From positions 1 through 13,781 of the IMG/VR virus record IMGVR_UViG_2531839665_000026: a stretch of DNA of 13,781 nucleotides; one strand, written 5' to 3'. Shown in pieces: positions 449 through 8,643 of the stretch (positions are counted from its first letter, which is position 1; each line of letters opens with the position of its first letter). The position numbers were made by a program, and so were the translations under genes. The DNA is from a virus (lineage: Duplodnaviria; Heunggongvirae; Uroviricota; Caudoviricetes). The notes under the pieces were generated by a model. That model did not search any database, had not been told where the DNA came from, and saw nothing but the letters and a program-made list of their open reading frames with translations.

Positions 449-2200
449 ATGATTCAGGACGCTTTTGTGCGCCAGCGTGCGCGGCAACTTTACTGGCAGG
501 GTTATCCGCCCGCAGAAATATCACGTCTGATGGGAATAAACCCGAACACGATTTATGCGTGGAAAAAACGCGACCAGTGGGATGAAACGCCACCCGTGCA
601 GCGTGTCACGCAGTCCATCGATGCGCGCCTCATCCAGCTCACTGAAAAACAGAATAAAACAGGTGGTGACTTCAAGGAAATAGACCTGCTGACCCGGCAG
701 CTTAAAAAACTGCATGATGGCCAGCCGGATGCGACGGCCACAGGAAAGAAAGGCCGGGCGAAAAAACTCAAAAATCATTTCACGCCGGAACAGATTGCCG
801 CACTGCGGGAAAAAATCATCAGCAGGCTGGAGTGGCATCAGCGGGGCTGGTTTGACTCCCTGACCCTTTGCAGGGAAGCCGGGATACGTAACAGGATGAT
901 CCTGAAATCCCGACAGATTGGGGCGACCTGGTATTTTGCACAGGAAGCACTGCTGATGGCGCTGCGTGACGATGTGGCGCAACCTTACCAGCGTAACCAG
1001 ATTTTTTTGTCTGCGTCGCGTCGTCAGGCGTTCCAGTTTAAAAGCATTATTCAGAAGGCCGCGGCTGAAGTTGATGTGGAGCTGAAAGGGGGCGATAAAA
1101 TCATCCTCTCAAACGGCGCAGAGCTGCATTTTCTCGGCACTTCTGCTGCGTCGGCACAGTCCTATACGGGCAATTTTTATTTTGATGAATTTTTCTGGGT
1201 CAGTCGCTTTGCCGAACTGCGCAAGGTGGCTGGCGCTATGGCAACCCTCAGCGGACTGCGGCGCACCTACTTCTCCACGCCATCCACCGAAACGCACGAG
1301 GCATACGCCTACTGGAACGGCGACCGCTGGAACGAGAAAAAGGCCTCGCATAAACGCCAGCGTTTTTCTGTGGACTGGAAAACGCTGCATAACGGGCTTA
1401 TCTGCCCTGACCGGACGTGGCGGCAAATTGTCACGCTGGAAGATGTGGTTAATCACGGCTGGAAACACACCGATATTGACGAAATCCGTGATGAAAACAC
1501 CGAAGACGAGTTCCTCAATCTCTATATGTGTGAGTTTGTTCGCGAAGGGGAATCGGCATTTAACCTGAATATCCTGATTGGCTGCGGTGTTGACGGATAC
1601 GACGACTGGAAAGACTGGAAACCTTTTGCTCCCCGCCCGATGGGGAATCGTCCGGTATGGATTGGGTATGACGCAAACGGCAGCAGTGGCAACGGGGACA
1701 GCGGCGCTGTGTCCGTGGTGGTTCCTCCGGCTGTTCCTGGTGGCCGTTTTCGAACGGTGGAGACGCGACGCGTTCAGGGGCTGGAGTTTGAAGAACAGGC
1801 CAGAGTCATTGAAGAGTTCACGTGTCGCTACAACGTGGAACACATCGGCATTGATGTGACGGGCGGGAACGGGGAGGCTGTTTATCAGATAGTGAAACGG
1901 TTTTTCCCTGCCGCTATTCCGTACACCTTCACGCTGTCATCCAAACGGTCGCTGGTACTGAAAATGCAGCAAATAATGCGTGCCGGACGGTGGGAATACG
2001 ATCGCGCCGAACGCGAGCTGGTCGCGGCCTTTAACGCCGTGCGTAAGGTGAAAACACCGGGTGGCTTTATCACTTACGAAACGGACCGCGCGAGGGGGAT
2101 CAGCCACGGCGACCTTGCGTGGGCAACCATGCTTGCTGTCATTAACGAACCAATTGGCGGCGAAGGAGAAAAACGAGCGTTTCACGGTTATGGAGTTCTG
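449..2200 (+). CDS. P: Terminase large (ATPase/nuclease) subunit gpP-like; no in-frame stop, frame continues into the portal
   Basis: N-terminal HTH-like segment (YWQGYPPAEISRLMGINPNTIYAWKKRDQWDE), Walker A-like KSRQIGATWYF, Walker B-like FYFDEFFW, and acidic nuclease-domain motifs (WIGYDANGSSGNGDSGAVSVV, HGDLAWATMLAV). The 584 codons before the internal ATG at 2201 compare with about 590 aa for P2 gpP. AGGGGG lies 4 nt before the ATG at 449. Confidence 0.85.
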
Positions 2201-3247
2201 ATGAGCAGAAAAAATAAAAAAGTGCGCATGAGTTCACGCATTGATCTCGCTGATGCGCTCAGGAAAGAATCATCGCTCAGTGCATTCACATTTGATGGTC
2301 CTTATCGCCTGACCGGGCATGACCTGCTGGACAATATGTACTGTGCTGATAACGGGCGGTGGTATGAAACCCCGGTGGACTGGTACGGTCTGGCAAGAGC
2401 CGCCCGGCAAACGTCCTGGCATCAGTCTGCGCTTTACTTTAAGCGCAATGTATTGCTCGGTTGCTACATCCCGCACCCGCTGCTTTCCCGGCAGGATTTC
2501 TCGGCGCTGGCGCTGGACTGGTTTGTGTTCGGTAACGCATTCCTTGAGCTTCGGAGCAATATGCTCGGCGAACCACTTAAATTACGGCACGCACTGGCGA
2601 AATACATGCGACGCGGAAGCGATCTTGAATCATGGTGGTATGTGCAGGATGGCAAGGACGCGTTTCAGTTTCGCCCTGGCAAAGTGTGCCACCTGATGAA
2701 TCCGGACATTAACCAGGAAATTTACGGCATGCCGGAATATCTCGGCGCATTACTCTCGGCCAGCCTGTCTCATTCGGCGGACATGTTCAGAAAACTGTAT
2801 TACGACAATGGATCCCACGCCGGGTGCATCATCTACATCGGTGCAGCGCAGGTAAACCGCGAAAGCATGGACTCCCTGAAAGAAACGCTACAGGGTGCGC
2901 GTGGTGGTGGTGCGTTTAAAAACGTGCTCATTCATGCGCCCAACGGGGGCAAAGAGGGGGTGCAAATTTTGCCGTTCCAGCAGATCACCGCAAAGGATGA
3001 GTTCATGAATGTTAAGGCGGCATCCCGTGATGATGTGCTGGCTGCGCACCGCGTTCCGCCGCAACTGATGGGGGCGATGCCGGGTGAAAAAAGTGCGTTT
3101 GGTGATGTGGAGAAGGCCGCGCGGGTTTACGCAATTAACGAGCTGATGCCCGTCATGGAGGCCATGAAGCATATCAATGACTGGCTTGGCGAAGAGGTGA
3201 TCCGATTTAACCCTTACGCACTGCTGGACACCCAGCCCACATCCTGA
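2201..3247 (+). CDS. Q: Portal protein gpQ-like (348 aa if initiated at the internal ATG at 2201)
   Basis: Follows P on the same strand as in P2. ATG at 2201 is preceded by GGAG at 2192-2195 (5-nt spacer). Length of 348 aa compares with about 344 aa for P2 gpQ. It has a basic N-terminus (MSRKNKKVRMSSR) followed by a conserved-looking core. Stop codon TGA at 3245-3247. Confidence 0.7.
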   Translation: MSRKNKKVRMSSRIDLADALRKESSLSAFTFDGPYRLTGHDLLDNMYCADNGRWYETPVDWYGLARAARQTSWHQSALYFKRNVLLGCYIPHPLLSRQDFSALALDWFVFGNAFLELRSNMLGEPLKLRHALAKYMRRGSDLESWWYVQDGKDAFQFRPGKVCHLMNPDINQEIYGMPEYLGALLSASLSHSADMFRKLYYDNGSHAGCIIYIGAAQVNRESMDSLKETLQGARGGGAFKNVLIHAPNGGKEGVQILPFQQITAKDEFMNVKAASRDDVLAAHRVPPQLMGAMPGEKSAFGDVEKAARVYAINELMPVMEAMKHINDWLGEEVIRFNPYALLDTQPTS

Positions 3248-3272
3248 CGCGCTTCGCTTGTCTGCTGCTTCG

Positions 3273-3297
3273 CCGGGGCATAAAAAATTTATGCCCC
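3273..3297. other. Perfect 11-bp-stem hairpin (CGGGGCATAAA / TTTATGCCCCG, loop AAA) 26 nt after the Q stop
   Basis: Inverted repeat read directly. There is no U tract on either side, so it is not a canonical intrinsic terminator. It could be an RNA-stabilising stem or a protein-binding palindrome in the cos-proximal region. Confidence 0.6.
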
Positions 3298-3575
3298 GAC
3301 TCTCCAGCTCCTGTATCAATCAGATAATTTCACGACGTCTTCCAGCTTATCGCCATCATCGACGGTCAGGCTCTTACGCAATCCCACTGCGCTGACTGCA
3401 TGTTCTCGCCGCCTCAGTGCGATTTTGACGGCCTTATCTGCTACCCCATCAAATCAAAAGTCCTCACGTCTTTTTCATGCTCAGCGTGAGAAATACAGCC
3501 ATTCTGTTGTGTCGCTGCGACATCGTTCAGGGGATGCTATTTACCCCCTGAAACGCGGGCTGTTCCCCCGTCACC

Positions 3576-3601
3576 TGCGCGCAGAAAAAGCGCGTTTTTT
3601 T
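3576..3601 (+). terminator. Intrinsic terminator for the P-Q transcript
   Basis: GC stem CGCGC (3578-3582) / GCGCG (3590-3594), loop AGAAAAA, followed by T7 (3595-3601). Confidence 0.6.
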
Positions 3602-3609
3602 GTGCACGC

Positions 3610-3628
3610 ACGGATCCTTGACGGATCC
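3610..3628. repeat. Direct repeat ACGGATCC x2 separated by 3 bp
   Basis: ACGGATCC at 3610-3617 and 3621-3628, immediately after the T-run of the plus-strand terminator. Confidence 0.5.
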
Positions 3629-3671
3629 AACTGCCACGCGGGCCGGAAGGGCAAAAATTCGTTCAAAAAAA

Positions 3672-3698
3672 TTGTGCAAATTTGTGCACTATTGTGCA
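3672..3698. repeat. Three helically phased direct repeats TTGTGCA at exact 10-bp spacing
   Basis: TTGTGCA at 3672-3678, 3682-3688 and 3692-3698. The middle copy contains the palindrome GTGCAC. They lie in the non-coding cos-expected region between Q and the cargo operon. Confidence 0.6.
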
Positions 3699-3705
3699 TT
3701 GAAAT

Positions 3706-3728
3706 AAACGCCCTGGAAGAGGGCGTTT
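3706..3728 (-). terminator. Stem-loop terminator ending the minus-strand cargo operon (partly bidirectional)
   Basis: AAACGCCCT (3706-3714) / AGGGCGTTT (3720-3728), loop GGAAG, 10 nt past the stop of the 112-aa gene. On the minus-strand RNA the stem is followed by AUUUC. Confidence 0.6.
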
Positions 3729-3738
3729 TGGCTCATTT

Positions 3739-4077
3739 CTATAGCTTTGATGCAGGCTGGGCTAGGTCTCCTTTGATGCCAGTGTTTACAACCTGACAAG
3801 CCTCTTTGAGTACCCAGTCAACAGCGTCTTTCCATGCTCCGGTTTCGGCTGGCGGATTCTCACGCTTTACCAGTTCATAGAATCGTACTGCTCTAACCAG
3901 TCCATCTGACGGTTTTGCCTGTAGTGCAGCCTGAGCTATGCGGTATGCCTGGAGCATACGGGCGTCGTTGATATCCATTCCGAACGGAATTTCTGATGAT
4001 TGTGATTCTGCATCTTCAAGCCTGGCAATTTCTTTACGTAAAAAGTATTTCAACTCTTGTTTTTGTTTTCTGTTCAT
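3739..4077 (-). CDS. Hypothetical protein, 112 aa, last gene of the cargo operon
   Basis: ORF with AGGGAA-type SD 6 nt upstream of ATG at 4077. Charged and probably helical ([26 protein letters not shown]...). No family recognised. AT-rich relative to the phage backbone. Confidence 0.55.
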
Positions 4078-4405
4078 GCGTTTTTCCCTTTTTGTCTGTC
4101 ACTTCTCTCCTGATAATTTCATTGCACAAATCCACGCACTCATTGCAGATGCAAACAGACGGTCCGGCAATCACCTTTGTGACTTCGTACTGAGATTTAT
4201 TGCAGAAGCTGCAATAAATCGTCTCCTCGCCTGAAGTCCATGTTTTGCTGGTTTCGCCAGACATCAGTTGTTTGAGGTCTTTTTCACGACGAAGAACTAT
4301 CTGGCCACATTCAGCTATTTTTTGGATGTTGACATTTTCTTCTTTCGCCAGCGCTTCCATCCGCTCAATCAGTCGCTGCGCTTTTTCTCTGTCAATGTGT
4401 TGCAT
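4034..4405 (-). CDS. Small protein (123 aa) with a ClpX-type C4 zinc-ribbon domain
   Basis: Residues around 62-100, [39 protein letters not shown], align almost position for position with the N-terminal zinc-binding domain of E. coli ClpX as I recall it ([40 protein letters not shown]). GGGGG SD lies 5 nt before ATG at 4405. The last 44 nt overlap the next gene. Confidence 0.65.
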
Positions 4406-4439
4406 TGTGTCCCCCTTGTTTATGTTCCCGGATTAAAGT

Positions 4440-4463
4440 CATCAGGGCGGATGCGCCCTGATG
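4440..4463. other. Intra-operon perfect hairpin between the parR-like and zinc-ribbon genes
   Basis: CATCAGGGCG (4440-4449) / CGCCCTGATG (4454-4463), loop GATG. A third copy of CGCCCTGAT follows at 4484-4492. Confidence 0.5.
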
Positions 4464-4468
4464 TTGTG

Positions 4469-4780
4469 TTATTCGGGAAATAACGCCCTGATATTTCCGG
4501 CCATCCGACTGGTTATCTGTGTGGTTGGTACTGGCTGTGACGCGGGGCGTTCTGTCCTGGTTTGTGTCACTGATAACGCCTCATCGTCAGCCCATGCAGC
4601 CAGTCGGTAAGCCTCTGCCGGATTCATTTTCAGAAGTGCCAGCCCGGCCAGAAAAGCCACACGTTGGCCGCTTTTGCGGGCTTCTGGTGTAAGGCTGTCC
4701 AGCCAGGCGCATGCTTCGCCTTCGTTCTTGACGGCGGCGGGCTTCAGATAGAAACTTATCCGTCTGGTTGGTGTCGTCAT
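4469..4780 (-). CDS. parR: ParR-like small DNA-binding protein (103 aa from internal ATG)
   Basis: Translation from ATG at 4780 (MTTPTRRISFYLKPAAVKNEGEACAWLDSLTPEARKSGQRVAFLAGLALLKMNP...NIRALFPE) parallels plasmid R1 ParR as I recall it (..RTIAFKLNP...CDTLDSIPQGERSRLNRAALTAGLALYRQDP...NILRSLFPKE). GGAG lies 7 nt upstream, inside the end of parM. There is a 4-nt gap after the parM stop. The upstream 45 codons of the ORF-track entry overlap parM and are not used. Confidence 0.65.
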   Translation of the reverse strand: MTTPTRRISFYLKPAAVKNEGEACAWLDSLTPEARKSGQRVAFLAGLALLKMNPAEAYRLAAWADDEALSVTQTRTERPASQPVPTTQITSRMAGNIRALFPE

Positions 4781-4784
4781 TGGT

Positions 4785-5744
4785 TTACTCCTTGTCCATT
4801 GCGTACAGCCCATTAACCAGAGCAAACTGTGGCACCCCGTCCGCGATGAAAGTCGCATTAACTCCGCAGGCTTCGCGGATAGCGGGTGCCGCAATCTCCG
4901 CCCCGCCACCGACAACCATCACCCGCCCGTAACCCGAAAAACCCGCCAGCGCGCGGATCACTCGTTGTTTCAGTGTTTCTTCCTTTTCACGAATAACCGC
5001 CATCAGGCTGTCGTAATGCGCGTCATTGTGGATGTGCTGGCGCAGCCAGGCTTCATCGTGGCGATGTTCGATAATGGTATTGGCGATATGGTGACTGGTA
5101 CGCATACCGTTAGTGGCCATCACCGACAGTACGGCATCGGCTATCAGGGAAACGCCTACGTGTGGATCGCAAAACACCTGGCTGATACCTGCCAGTTGTC
5201 CCTGGACCTTTGCCACATCCAGCGTGGTTCCGCCTAAATCCACAATCAGCAGGGATTCAAACGGACTCATGTCAGCCAGAGCCTTAAAGCCAGCCGGAAT
5301 GGATTCAGGCATAACCCGCACGTTACGGATAGTGAATGCTTCGCCGTTCTGGTACTCCACCGGGCGCATAACGTTCGCTTTTTTGCGGTTGATGTTGGCC
5401 ATGTCCGGCTGTGCGTTTGTGTCGAAATACTCGCTCAGTGGCAGGGTGACAACCACATCCACCTCCTGTGGCGTGATGCCTGATTTGACCAGTGCGTGAT
5501 GAATGGCAATGACATTCACATCGCTGTATTGGTATTGCGTGTCGGTCGTCTGGACAAAGCGATCGCTGACCGGATCAAAACCGTAGCGCACGCCATCAAG
5601 CATGTAGTTCGCGGGCTGCGTGCCACTGAACGGCGCAGACCATTCCGACTTGAAGCTGTTCGGGCTGATGGCGTTGCGGCGTTCGCCGTTCTCAGTCCAT
5701 GCCAGCTTGATGTTGGTGGAGCCGTCGTCGATACAAATTTTCAT
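4785..5744 (-). CDS. parM: ParM/StbA-like actin-fold segregation ATPase (319 aa)
   Basis: Alignable along its whole length to plasmid R1 ParM (StbA) as I recall it. Shared blocks include IDDGSTNIKL, YSDVNVIAIHHAL, VMPESIPAG, DLGGTTLD and VVGGGAE. Length of 319 aa compares with about 320 aa for R1 ParM. Confidence 0.8.
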   Translation of the reverse strand: MKICIDDGSTNIKLAWTENGERRNAISPNSFKSEWSAPFSGTQPANYMLDGVRYGFDPVSDRFVQTTDTQYQYSDVNVIAIHHALVKSGITPQEVDVVVTLPLSEYFDTNAQPDMANINRKKANVMRPVEYQNGEAFTIRNVRVMPESIPAGFKALADMSPFESLLIVDLGGTTLDVAKVQGQLAGISQVFCDPHVGVSLIADAVLSVMATNGMRTSHHIANTIIEHRHDEAWLRQHIHNDAHYDSLMAVIREKEETLKQRVIRALAGFSGYGRVMVVGGGAEIAAPAIREACGVNATFIADGVPQFALVNGLYAMDKE

Positions 5745-5776
5745 GTCGCTTTTCCTTATGTTGATTAATTAATCGT

Positions 5777-5811
5777 TTACGGGATTCTGAAATCCCGTTT
5801 TTGCCTGTTTT
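5777..5811. repeat. Repeat R1: 35-bp hairpin-containing unit in the A/parM intergenic space (candidate parC-like site or promoter)
   Basis: TTACGGGATTCTGAAATCCCGTTTTTGCCTGTTTT. The internal stem ACGGGAT/ATCCCGT is followed by a T-rich tail on the plus strand. Confidence 0.6.
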
Positions 5812-5820
5812 GTGCGCGCT

Positions 5821-8643
5821 TCATATATCGCTGCGCGTTTTTTGCTCATTTACGGGATTCGTGAGTCCCGTTTCTGTCTGTTTTTTGTTTCCACTGGTCA
5901 GGCCACCCTGCAGCAGGTCTGCTTTGCGGTTGGCGCGTTCAGTGGTTTCACTGATTCTCTGTGCGTGCTCTGCGTCACGGATGGCGCGCAGCATGTCAGA
6001 AAGCACGGTAACGGGGGTTTTCATGGTGTTCTGGTCCTGCTGAAGTGTGGATGCCAGACGTGCGGCGGCTTCGGGGTCTGATGCCCCCAGTTGTTCCAGA
6101 TAGCTGGCGACCGGGTTATGGCGGATCTCTGTGCTGCTTACGCCGTGATTACGGCTCAGGCGCTGCCAGAGCTGCGTGATTCGGCTGTCCGGGCGGGTAT
6201 CCGGTTTGCGTACAATTTCAAATCCCTGCGGTGCAATGATGCTGCCGTCAACGTACAGGCTGCCGCCCCGTAGCAGGTGCTGCATCTGCTGTTCACCGAT
6301 ATGCAGGCCGAGAGATTCGGCAGACTCCCGCCATTCTTTAGCGAGTAATTCGTGGTTATCAGGCAAAGGCCGCTGCTGTTTGCGGCTCTGTGTCCAGCTC
6401 TGCATTTCATCACTGCTGTTTTTTGCCTGTTTGTCACGAAGCGAACGCATCAGCGCCCGGCGTTCGTGCCGTTTCAGTGAGCGCATCCATTCGTTCACTT
6501 CAACGCCATCAGGGAGCTGCGGCCACGGTGCTGGCTGTTCTTCCGGCTGTTCTGTCCCGTTGTTGTTCGTTTCCTGTACACGGGGACAGTTATTGCCACG
6601 AGTCCAAGGGGCGGCAGGGCCGCCCTGAAGGTCAAAACCATTTTCGCGGGCGCTGTCTTCCGCTTCCGGTTTACGTCTTACCAGCTTCCAGTTATCCGGA
6701 TGTGTGCACACACGGGAAGACTCCCCGATGAGTGGTGACCAGATCCCGTAAATCTGTACGCTCTGTTCGCCGTAATCGTTCAGCTCATCTGCGAGGTCGT
6801 AGGCGGTGCGAATCAGGTAGTCTTTGCGTGGAACAAGTACGCCGCCCTGTTTCTCAATGTAGGAGGCAAAACATCCGGCATCAGCGGCAGCGAGCACTGC
6901 ATCCATTGCGTCATCCTTCAGCCGTTGCGGGCCTTCCGGGTTGCGTGCCATCTGGCTGGCAAGGCGACGCAGTTCACGCCACACCTGACGGGAGGGGATG
7001 CCAAAGAACTGGAACTGGCGGACCCGGTGAAGGCGCGCCCAGCCAATGGCGCGTTCCACGCTCTCGGTCATTGATTTTCCGGTTTCGTGGTCAACGCGTG
7101 GTTTGCCTGTTTTCGGGTCGATGCCATCCACGGCGCGGCTGTCCAGGTTCTTTCCGATGTAGGTGGCGATGTAGCTGGTTGGCGTGCCTTTTGAGCCGTC
7201 GACGTACTCCGCTTTAAAACGCGGAGTTATGTCATCGCCCAGCTCGTGGCGGTCTTCCTGAATGGCAATATCGCAGACGTGGGACACGATGGTTTCAATC
7301 TCGTCCGGATGTGCAAAGACCATCATATGCCAGTGCACGGTGCCGTCATGGTGAGGCTCCACCGTGCGGATGCCATACCAGCGCAGGCCGTCGCGGTTCA
7401 GTTTCTTGCGGACCGCCGCAAAAAACGTGTTAACCAGGTAATCGCTGGAGTCGCGCATGGTGGCCCCGTTCCATTTGGGATTCGGATGACCGTTCTCTGT
7501 TGTAGCGTGGTATTTTGACGGGCAGGTGACAGTCAGAAACACCGCTCTGTCGCCACGGGCTTCGGCCAGAAGTTCCAGTCCCTTCATGGTGGCCATCATT
7601 TCTGCCTTACGGTGAACCGGGTTACTTACTCCCGCGTAATACACTGTCTCGAGATCAATCGTGAACCCGTCTTCATTTTCCAGCATGAAACTTTTCAGGA
7701 AATCGCGTGTTTTCTCGCGCTGTGCGCGAAACTCGCTTAACGCGTCCTGGCTCAGATAGGGTGATGTTTTTCTGGAAACCAGACAGGCGGCGCGGAGTTG
7801 TTCTTCTCTCCACTCGCAACGTAACAGCCACAATTTGCGTTTCCACCAGTCCGCACAGGTCAGGCGAAGGATTGCACCCGGCAGCAGTTCTGTGTCCGGT
7901 TCGTTCCTCCGGTCTTTGTCTGTTGTCAGTGCGTCATAATGTGGAGGCATGGTGTGCAGATGTAACGCCATGCGAGCCAGCAGCTGATACGCCTTCAGCG
8001 TTATATCCATGGTCAGCTCGCCATCGGTCGCGCCAAAGCCATCGCAGAGTTTTTCGAAGGTGCTGCTGAACATTGCCGCCGTCATGACGGCCAGTGTCTG
8101 TATCTGGTGTTTGTTGAGCTGCGGCAGGTAAAGTAAATCGTCCAGACGTTCACGTCCGGCAAGGGAGCGATAACCCGGAGTCAGCCAGCGTCCGTCAGTG
8201 CGGGCCAGACGTTCCAATATTTTGCGCAGGGTTCCGCGTGCATAGCGTTCCGCCTGCCAGCTCTTTTTGCCTTTCCGGCGATCGGCTTCCTGCTTTTTGC
8301 GCAGGAAGGAGAGGTGGCGAATAAGCGGATCGCGCAGATAGGACGGCAGCAGGCGCAGCGAGGCCATGGCTTCATCCACCGCACCGCGTGCCTGTTTTCT
8401 GGCGTCTCTGGCCAGTGTGATGGTTTTGTCCTGCTTTTCCTGTGCGTCCAGGCTTTTATTAATCAGGTTGCCCAGCGGCGTTGCGGAGAACGCCGCATCA
8501 GCCATTTCCTGGCGTCGCTCGTTCTCTACCCGGTAAGCATCCAGCCAGGAGGAAAGCGCGGATTCAGGTGCGGGGATCCCCGTACCTTCACGCCCTACTG
8601 CGTGGCGCGGTTGTTGCCAGTCCCTGATGTACTCTGTCGTCAT
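5821..8643 (-). CDS. A: Rolling-circle replication initiator gpA-like (HUH endonuclease), 940 aa
   Basis: Long minus-strand ORF with an HUH-type motif (TVHWHMMVF) and paired tyrosines (TSYIATYIGK), as in the P2 gene A protein. It sits downstream of cox and the small early genes, as in P2. It is longer than P2 gpA (about 761 aa) because of a C-terminal extension. Confidence 0.85.
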   Translation of the reverse strand: MTTEYIRDWQQPRHAVGREGTGIPAPESALSSWLDAYRVENERRQEMADAAFSATPLGNLINKSLDAQEKQDKTITLARDARKQARGAVDEAMASLRLLPSYLRDPLIRHLSFLRKKQEADRRKGKKSWQAERYARGTLRKILERLARTDGRWLTPGYRSLAGRERLDDLLYLPQLNKHQIQTLAVMTAAMFSSTFEKLCDGFGATDGELTMDITLKAYQLLARMALHLHTMPPHYDALTTDKDRRNEPDTELLPGAILRLTCADWWKRKLWLLRCEWREEQLRAACLVSRKTSPYLSQDALSEFRAQREKTRDFLKSFMLENEDGFTIDLETVYYAGVSNPVHRKAEMMATMKGLELLAEARGDRAVFLTVTCPSKYHATTENGHPNPKWNGATMRDSSDYLVNTFFAAVRKKLNRDGLRWYGIRTVEPHHDGTVHWHMMVFAHPDEIETIVSHVCDIAIQEDRHELGDDITPRFKAEYVDGSKGTPTSYIATYIGKNLDSRAVDGIDPKTGKPRVDHETGKSMTESVERAIGWARLHRVRQFQFFGIPSRQVWRELRRLASQMARNPEGPQRLKDDAMDAVLAAADAGCFASYIEKQGGVLVPRKDYLIRTAYDLADELNDYGEQSVQIYGIWSPLIGESSRVCTHPDNWKLVRRKPEAEDSARENGFDLQGGPAAPWTRGNNCPRVQETNNNGTEQPEEQPAPWPQLPDGVEVNEWMRSLKRHERRALMRSLRDKQAKNSSDEMQSWTQSRKQQRPLPDNHELLAKEWRESAESLGLHIGEQQMQHLLRGGSLYVDGSIIAPQGFEIVRKPDTRPDSRITQLWQRLSRNHGVSSTEIRHNPVASYLEQLGASDPEAAARLASTLQQDQNTMKTPVTVLSDMLRAIRDAEHAQRISETTERANRKADLLQGGLTSGNKKQTETGLTNPVNEQKTRSDI
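5849..5883. repeat. Repeat R2: second copy of the 35-bp unit, lying inside the last codons of gene A
   Basis: TTACGGGATTCGTGAGTCCCGTTTCTGTCTGTTTT. 29 of 35 positions match R1, with most differences in the hairpin loop. It sits 72 bp to the right of R1. Confidence 0.6.

Follow-up and report, generated by a model that had tools for sequence, protein, structure and literature searches.

The window analysed here, the whole 13,781-nt stretch of DNA from virus record IMGVR_UViG_2531839665_000026, is a P88-like prophage (genus Xuanwuvirus, family Peduoviridae, the P2 family), to which phage P88 is 97% identical over positions 3300-4100 with the same gene order. The homologues of the large terminase subunit gpP and the portal protein gpQ form a single ORF in the window, with Pfam matches to Terminase_6N/6C/5 at residues 6-566 and to Phage_portal at residues 676-929, where the P88 annotation has two genes. 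The two are fused through one additional A in the run at 2168-2172 (five A's against four in P88, Shae_phiSM and Chuche), 11 codons short of the P stop codon. The added base is either a sequencing error in the homopolymer or a frameshift by which P acquires a different C-terminus and is joined to Q. Cargo genes follow on the opposite strand, including those for ParM and ParR (StbA/StbB; 4469-5744, 0.8-2 kb from the repeats described below), and beyond them lies replication gene A (Table 1). Upstream of parM, positions 5761-5860 hold inverted repeats (ACGGGATT/AATCCCGT) and direct repeats (TCRTTTACGGGATTC, 73 bp apart), likely the parC centromere for ParM/ParR and unrelated to the TTGTGCA motif.

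Table 1. Features of the window around the TTGTGCA repeats. Identity is the mean column identity among 68 distinct cos regions located through their portal protein.
Feature	Position	Strand	Basis or remark	Identity
Fused 932-aa ORF, terminase large subunit (gpP homologue) and portal (gpQ homologue)	449..3247	+	Pfam	
Hairpin directly after the portal stop codon	about 3272-3298		Separate from the hairpin next to the cos core	
Putative cos module	about 3554-3698		Suggested by sequence comparison	
Predicted 19-nt cohesive-end core (cosN equivalent), GGGCTGTTCCCCCGTCACC	3557..3575	+	Homology	0.89
Short GC hairpin (GCGCGC-AGAAAAA-GCGCGT), then T-run	3577..3595	+	Terminator-like match	0.69 (hairpin)
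Box 1 (TTGTGCA)	3600..3606	+	T7 run directly before; invariant among 10 relatives	0.92 (T-run and box 1)
Box 1-box 2 spacer	3607..3671	+	Sequence variable, length fixed (65 bp)	0.63
A7 run within the spacer	3665-3671		Conserved	0.84 (A-run)
Box 2 (TTGTGCA)	3672..3678	+		0.95
Box 3 (TTGTGCA)	3682..3688	+		0.93
Box 4 (TTGTGCA)	3692..3698	+	Last conserved element	0.87
Sequence past box 4	after 3698			0.38
Hairpin AAACGCCCT/AGGGCGTTT	3706..3728		Inverted repeat, end of the minus-strand cargo genes	
Cargo genes: 112-aa ORF, ClpX zinc-finger protein, ParR/StbB, ParM	3739-5744	-	Pfam	
Replication gene A	5821-8643		Beyond the variable cargo, >2 kb from the repeats	

The repeats are perfect plus-strand copies of TTGTGCA. 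A preliminary description of this DNA had reported three of them with exact 10-bp phasing, and these are indeed found, starting at 3672, 3682 and 3692, with a start-to-start step of exactly 10 bp; Tandem Repeats Finder returns a 10-bp period with 3.1 copies over 3668-3698. A fourth perfect copy, which had gone unnoticed, stands exactly 72 bp 5' of the 3672 copy, and the four are numbered here as boxes 1-4. The window has five matches to the 7-mer, with 3.8 expected, so the motif alone is not in excess, but its phased triple is: of 2000 dinucleotide-preserving shuffles of the window, just one contained any non-trivial 7-mer three times in 10-bp steps, and the expectation calculated analytically is approximately 5e-5. 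Phased TTGTGCA triples also occur in unrelated contexts, including an unrelated phage (L089, at 8387-8413, and L072) and many Bryobacteraceae loci, so that the triple alone is not diagnostic of a cos site. In the L089/L072 phage the triple adjoins a 104-aa ORF and an integrase-family gene; a placement beside terminase genes was considered there and rejected, the adjoining 499-aa protein being of the integrase family.

The array lies 310-450 bp 3' of the portal gene, and since the cohesive-end site of P2 sits just past the 3' end of portal gene Q, the repeats fall in cos territory. Directly before the array, just past the 3' end of the portal gene, the window has a GC-rich 19-nt core homologous to GGCGAGGCGGGGAAAGCAC; read by eye, GGGCTGTTCCCCCGTCACC and the P2 core (in reverse complement, GTGCTTTCCCCGCCTCGCC) are identical at 13/19 positions. 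An intermediate core, GCTTGCTCCCCCGCCTCGCC, accompanies TTGTGCA boxes in phages of the L021 and L330 types and bridges the P2 and P88 forms. A different alignment, of window GCGCGCAG with the P2 left flank, was rejected, as it breaks the core-to-box-1 distance and conflicts with the intermediate sequences.

To the right of the core the window reads TGCGCGCAGAAAAAGCGCG, a T7 run and GTGCA, the last of these in the box 1 segment TTTTTTTGTGCA, and the full order is core, short hairpin, T-run, box 1, 72 bp, box 2, 10 bp, box 3, 10 bp and box 4. The P2 counterpart of this flank is CGCCCGCTTCACGGGGCGG, TTTTAA and TGCA, the P2 junction, read from the portal through cos towards the other arm, running from the 19-nt core through CGCCCGCTTCACGGGGCGG and TTTTAATGCA to AATGCAATCTCATGCACCCTTGAATGCA 72 bp further on, and the junctions of 186 and of satellite P4 follow the same plan. 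Counted from the core, P2, 186 and P4 have TGCA boxes at +26, +98, +108 and +117 to +121, and their box 1-box 2 distance of 72 bp is that of the window (TGCA at 3603 and 3675). Because the P2 hairpin stands immediately to the right of its core, the hairpin at 3577-3595 belongs to the cos region, where it takes the place of the hairpin that P2 and P4 have within their 55-bp conserved cos core. The triple had been placed between two terminators in the preliminary description; the hairpin on the cargo side is present, whilst the supposed 'P-Q terminator' is this hairpin adjoining the cos core. Its stem is not kept in the phiT5282H-type lineage. The cargo-side hairpin is the start of the variable cargo hotspot, outside the conserved module, and the sequence there varies between relatives.

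The terminase cut in P88-like phages would be expected within the predicted core. As a weak hint on the cut site, the satellite contig QAKE01000006.1 (see below) begins 3 nt inside this core. The linear record of phage P88_4B11 (LR595891.1, represented by two of our loci) is broken elsewhere, at 3653|3654, between GGAAGGGCA and AAAATTCG in the spacer and 18 nt before box 2, which could be an arbitrary assembly break or a true genome end. Two further repeats were noted in this part of the window. The T7 run before box 1 and the A7 run before box 2 (TTTTTTTG, 3595-3602, and CAAAAAAA, 3664-3671) are perfectly complementary and 61 nt apart, and the two tracts may be intrinsic bends flanking the spacer. 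A direct repeat, CTGAAACGCGGGC (3548-3560) and CTGCCACGCGGGC (3631-3643), partly duplicates the left edge of the core in the spacer at a distance of 83 bp, adjoining the LR595891 record break.

Conservation of the motif and of its spacing in related phages had been proposed as a check on the repeats, and both the boxes and the 72 (±1) bp distance proved to be kept. In an alignment of ten close and distant phages, including the distant Enterobacter phage phiT5282H (~74% identical in this region), TCAAAAAAATTGTGCAAATTTGTGCACTATYGTGCA, box 1 and the GC-rich block (GGGCTGTTCCCCCGTCACCTGCGC) are almost invariant. Similarity ends within a few bases of the third repeat of the triple, after which the cargo differs from phage to phage, and for 11 phage records the megablast match ends at query position 399, that is at window position 3698. 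Two larger sets were assembled blind to the boxes, one through the portal protein (68 distinct cos regions; Table 1) and one through the P2-type core alone (107 distinct regions). In the core-selected set TGCA follows the core at +26 in 103/107 regions, at +98 in 76/107, at +108 in 66/107 and at +117 or +121 in 77/107, and at other offsets it has a mean of 0.85 occurrences per 104 sequences. A considerable minority of the relatives have a degenerate box 4. Where both elements were detectable, box 1 and the box 2/3 doublet are 71-73 bp apart in 57/58 portal-selected and 83/88 core-selected regions, and exactly 72 bp apart in 51/58 and 65/88, respectively. The sequence of the spacer is much freer, with a mean pairwise identity in the P2-type set of 0.45 against 0.38 for unrelated flank, and a fixed length combined with a free sequence points to a geometric constraint.

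The arrangement recurs well beyond these sets. Among 120 viral contigs with the P88-type triple pattern the full architecture was found in 117, and in 107 of the 120 pattern matches a portal homologue lies 350-1100 bp upstream of the triple. The same pattern scanned against genome contigs gave at least 16 relevant loci among the 120 matches listed, in Kluyvera, Erwinia, Pantoea, Mixta, Citrobacter, Symbiopectobacterium, Enterobacter, Trabulsiella and Arsenophonus, most of the others being unrelated repeats such as those of Bryobacteraceae. Of 5426 complete E. coli genomes, 1106 carry the module (3540-3700) at 90% identity or more, at 1254 places and up to four times per genome; no annotated feature was found under it among the eight E. 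coli matches listed from RefSeq. Judged by sequence, boxes 1-4 are the P88-lineage version of a cos-flanking array common to P2, 186, P4 and many relatives.

The same signal is found in satellites that rely on a helper terminase. Sixteen distinct elements of the P4 type, each with a psu homologue (62-99% identity), all have TGCA at +26, +98, +108 and +121 (16/16). A further element is represented by QAKE01000006.1, a 12,723-bp contig with ends that overlap by 516 bp, giving a 12,207-bp circle. It encodes integrases, a Toprim primase, AlpA and a P2-family major capsid protein of its own, no terminase or portal homologue was found in its 12,207 bp, and this gene content suggests that it depends on a helper. 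All that the element and its Kluyvera and Erwinia relatives have in common with the window is 3554-3709 and the integrase gene; as the satellite homology begins at 3554 and spans the core to box 4, the shared DNA corresponds to the core-box 4 interval (roughly 150 bp). Relatives of the element were found in Kluyvera, Erwinia dacicola and Arsenophonus, with one further possible case (L137), and in the Arsenophonus variant the TTGTGCA boxes go with a core closer to that of P2. A weak E. coli match also considered as a satellite was rejected, being a complete P2-like prophage.

On this comparative evidence the three repeats are quite likely boxes 2-4 in an array of four that makes up the cosB-like, outer half of the prophage cos site, and the array is probably a terminase recognition array with the small subunit gpM as its binder. 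As in a cosB-type site, several copies of one motif stand on one side of the predicted nick at conserved distances (72, 10 and 10 bp). The known functions common to helpers and satellites here are only the helper packaging proteins. In the P88-type set TGCA is preceded by G at all or most of the four boxes, in the P2-type set by A, and four separated boxes that change together suggest one reader protein that differs between the lineages. The gpM homologues of P88 (266 aa) and P2 (247 aa) both match PF05944 and are 37% identical; a search for a solved structure related to gpM found none. Because the G/A difference tracks phylogeny it does not prove gpM as the reader, and gpP, the portal or another helper protein could read the boxes instead. 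Cargo proteins, which the preliminary description had also offered as binders, are excluded since the cargo varies between relatives beside identical boxes. Of the other options raised there, terminase sites near cos are strongly favoured by the comparisons, whilst iterons and nucleoid-protein sites are disfavoured.

We propose that an oligomeric phage protein, most likely gpM (encoded outside the window), binds the four boxes. The 10-bp phasing and the 72-bp gap (about seven helical turns) would place them on roughly one face of the DNA, so that box 1 near the cut site and boxes 2-4 could be joined by looping or wrapping; a helix of 10.5 bp per turn makes 6.9 turns in 72 bp, and 'same face' is therefore approximate. 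The looped or wrapped complex would then present the core to gpP for nicking and the start of packaging.

The boxes might instead be sites for host nucleoid proteins (IHF, Fis or H-NS) that shape the cos DNA or silence the cargo, with no phage reader involved, which we consider unlikely. The region is AT-rich, A7 and T7 tracts flank boxes 1 and 2, and there is a precedent in lambda cos, where IHF acts between the terminase sites. The concerted change from GTGCA to ATGCA, however, separates lineages whose enterobacterial hosts overlap and so speaks against a host protein as the reader, since a single host protein would not demand such a change; moreover, inspection of the window and its relatives by eye gave no match to the IHF consensus at a consistent place.

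We see little likelihood, too, that the repeats serve recombination rather than packaging, as an anchor at which cargo cassettes are exchanged by crossover at the cos-proximal hotspot. Homology does halt within a few bases of box 4 in every relative, with unrelated cargo beyond, and the locus is a known cos-adjacent hotspot (PMC9122126). A sharp break in homology is nevertheless to be expected at the edge of any essential element, an anchor leaves unexplained why box 1 stays strictly 72 bp away when the spacer sequence has diverged, and P4-like satellites keep the boxes although their own hotspot is on the other side of cos (PMC9122126).

A role in transcription, whether as a site for the late activator Ogr/Delta or as a promoter or terminator of the flanking operons, is very unlikely, even though the third box of the triple in P2 overlaps an apparent -35 element of the old/tin promoter (from the sequence and the annotated starts) and a weak terminator-like hairpin can be drawn across boxes 2-3 on the minus strand. 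The Ogr/Delta activator motif of P2 late promoters is TGT-N12-ACA, which does not occur in the boxes, the TGT at 3673 and at 3683 being followed 12 nt on by ACT and ATT. A promoter scan over the repeats gave no match, and the boxes are the same whether the cargo converges on them, as in the window, or runs away from them, as in Chuche and Shae_phiSM.

The least credible reading is a plasmid-type cis site, either a parC for ParM/ParR, replication iterons or the operator of a cargo protein, which would suit the proximity of parMR and the fact that centromeres and iterons typically contain short direct repeats in phase, but the array occurs without neighbouring parMR in phiT5282H, P2, 186 and P4 as well as in satellites, the region upstream of parM has distinct repeats of its own, the cargo beside identical boxes differs between relatives, and iterons are disfavoured because the array follows cos and not a replication gene.

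Returning to a terminase recognition array, we tentatively suggest a broader claim, which we hold as possible rather than probable: that the four boxes and their fixed 72-bp gap are the real determinant of packaging specificity in enterobacterial P2-family phages, an unrecognised cosB beyond the 55-bp conserved core, occurring in two satellite-matched classes, ATGCA (P2/186/P4) and GTGCA (P88-like). Were this so, a 12-kb type of satellite, undescribed and with its own capsid protein, would have copied the P88-type signal. The array would also let the box type (ATGCA or GTGCA) predict which helper lineage packages which satellites, and it shows precisely where the hotspot of defence and cargo genes beside cos begins on its inner side. 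P2/P4 cosmids and helper strains are under engineering as antibacterial delivery particles, for which the array offers a design rule, a packaging signal that would need no more than about 150 bp. Transduction by P4 cosmids rises more than 1000-fold when the flanks of the 55-bp core are lengthened (PMC9594776; cosmid sequences not given), which fits the four-box model, and an array with fixed spacing would be a testable explanation of this effect, the cause of which was not known in that study.

That core is part of what is established for the cos sites of P2, 186 and P4, in which 19-nt cohesive ends lie within 55 conserved bp (Ziermann and Calendar, 1990, as cited in PMC3931495, PMC5694545 and PMC9594776). 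As the 55-bp core ends at about box 1, boxes 2-4 fall outside it, and the papers on P2/P4 cos that we consulted describe the 55-bp core alone; the deletion analysis of the 1990 paper may already cover the boxes, and their novelty is to that extent uncertain. The window resembles these cos sites in its place beside the portal gene, in its homologous core, in the order of core, hairpin, T-run and box 1 and in the TGCA triple 72 bp further on. It differs from them in having TTGTGCA boxes where they have (A/C)ATGCA and at 6/19 positions of the core, and from P2 in that the TGCA of box 1 lies 28 nt past the core rather than 26.

The resemblance to lambda cosB is one of layout. In both, a short motif is repeated several times to one side of the nick, with one copy near it and the rest, after a gap, ~100-130 bp away, and in both the small terminase subunit is the expected reader. 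In lambda the gpNu1 sites R3, R2 and R1 and the IHF site I1 lie on one side of cosN. The sequences are unrelated, and the repeats of the window are direct, 7 bp long and set at exact 10-bp steps; gpM, a member of PF05944, is set beside gpNu1 here by its expected role. The parallel is incomplete in that no match to the IHF consensus (WATCAANNNNTTR) was seen by eye in the window spacer, the nearest sequence, GTTCAAAAAAATTG, being one base out of register. P2 also packages monomeric circles and not concatemers, unlike lambda.

Finally, P2-like phages have a variable hotspot close to cos, between gpA and gpQ, known as the old/tin locus (Rousset et al., 2022; PMC9122126). The cargo of the window (ParM, ParR, the ClpX zinc-finger protein and the 112-aa ORF) fills this hotspot in the same way, whereas the repeats are not cargo but the last conserved element at its border.
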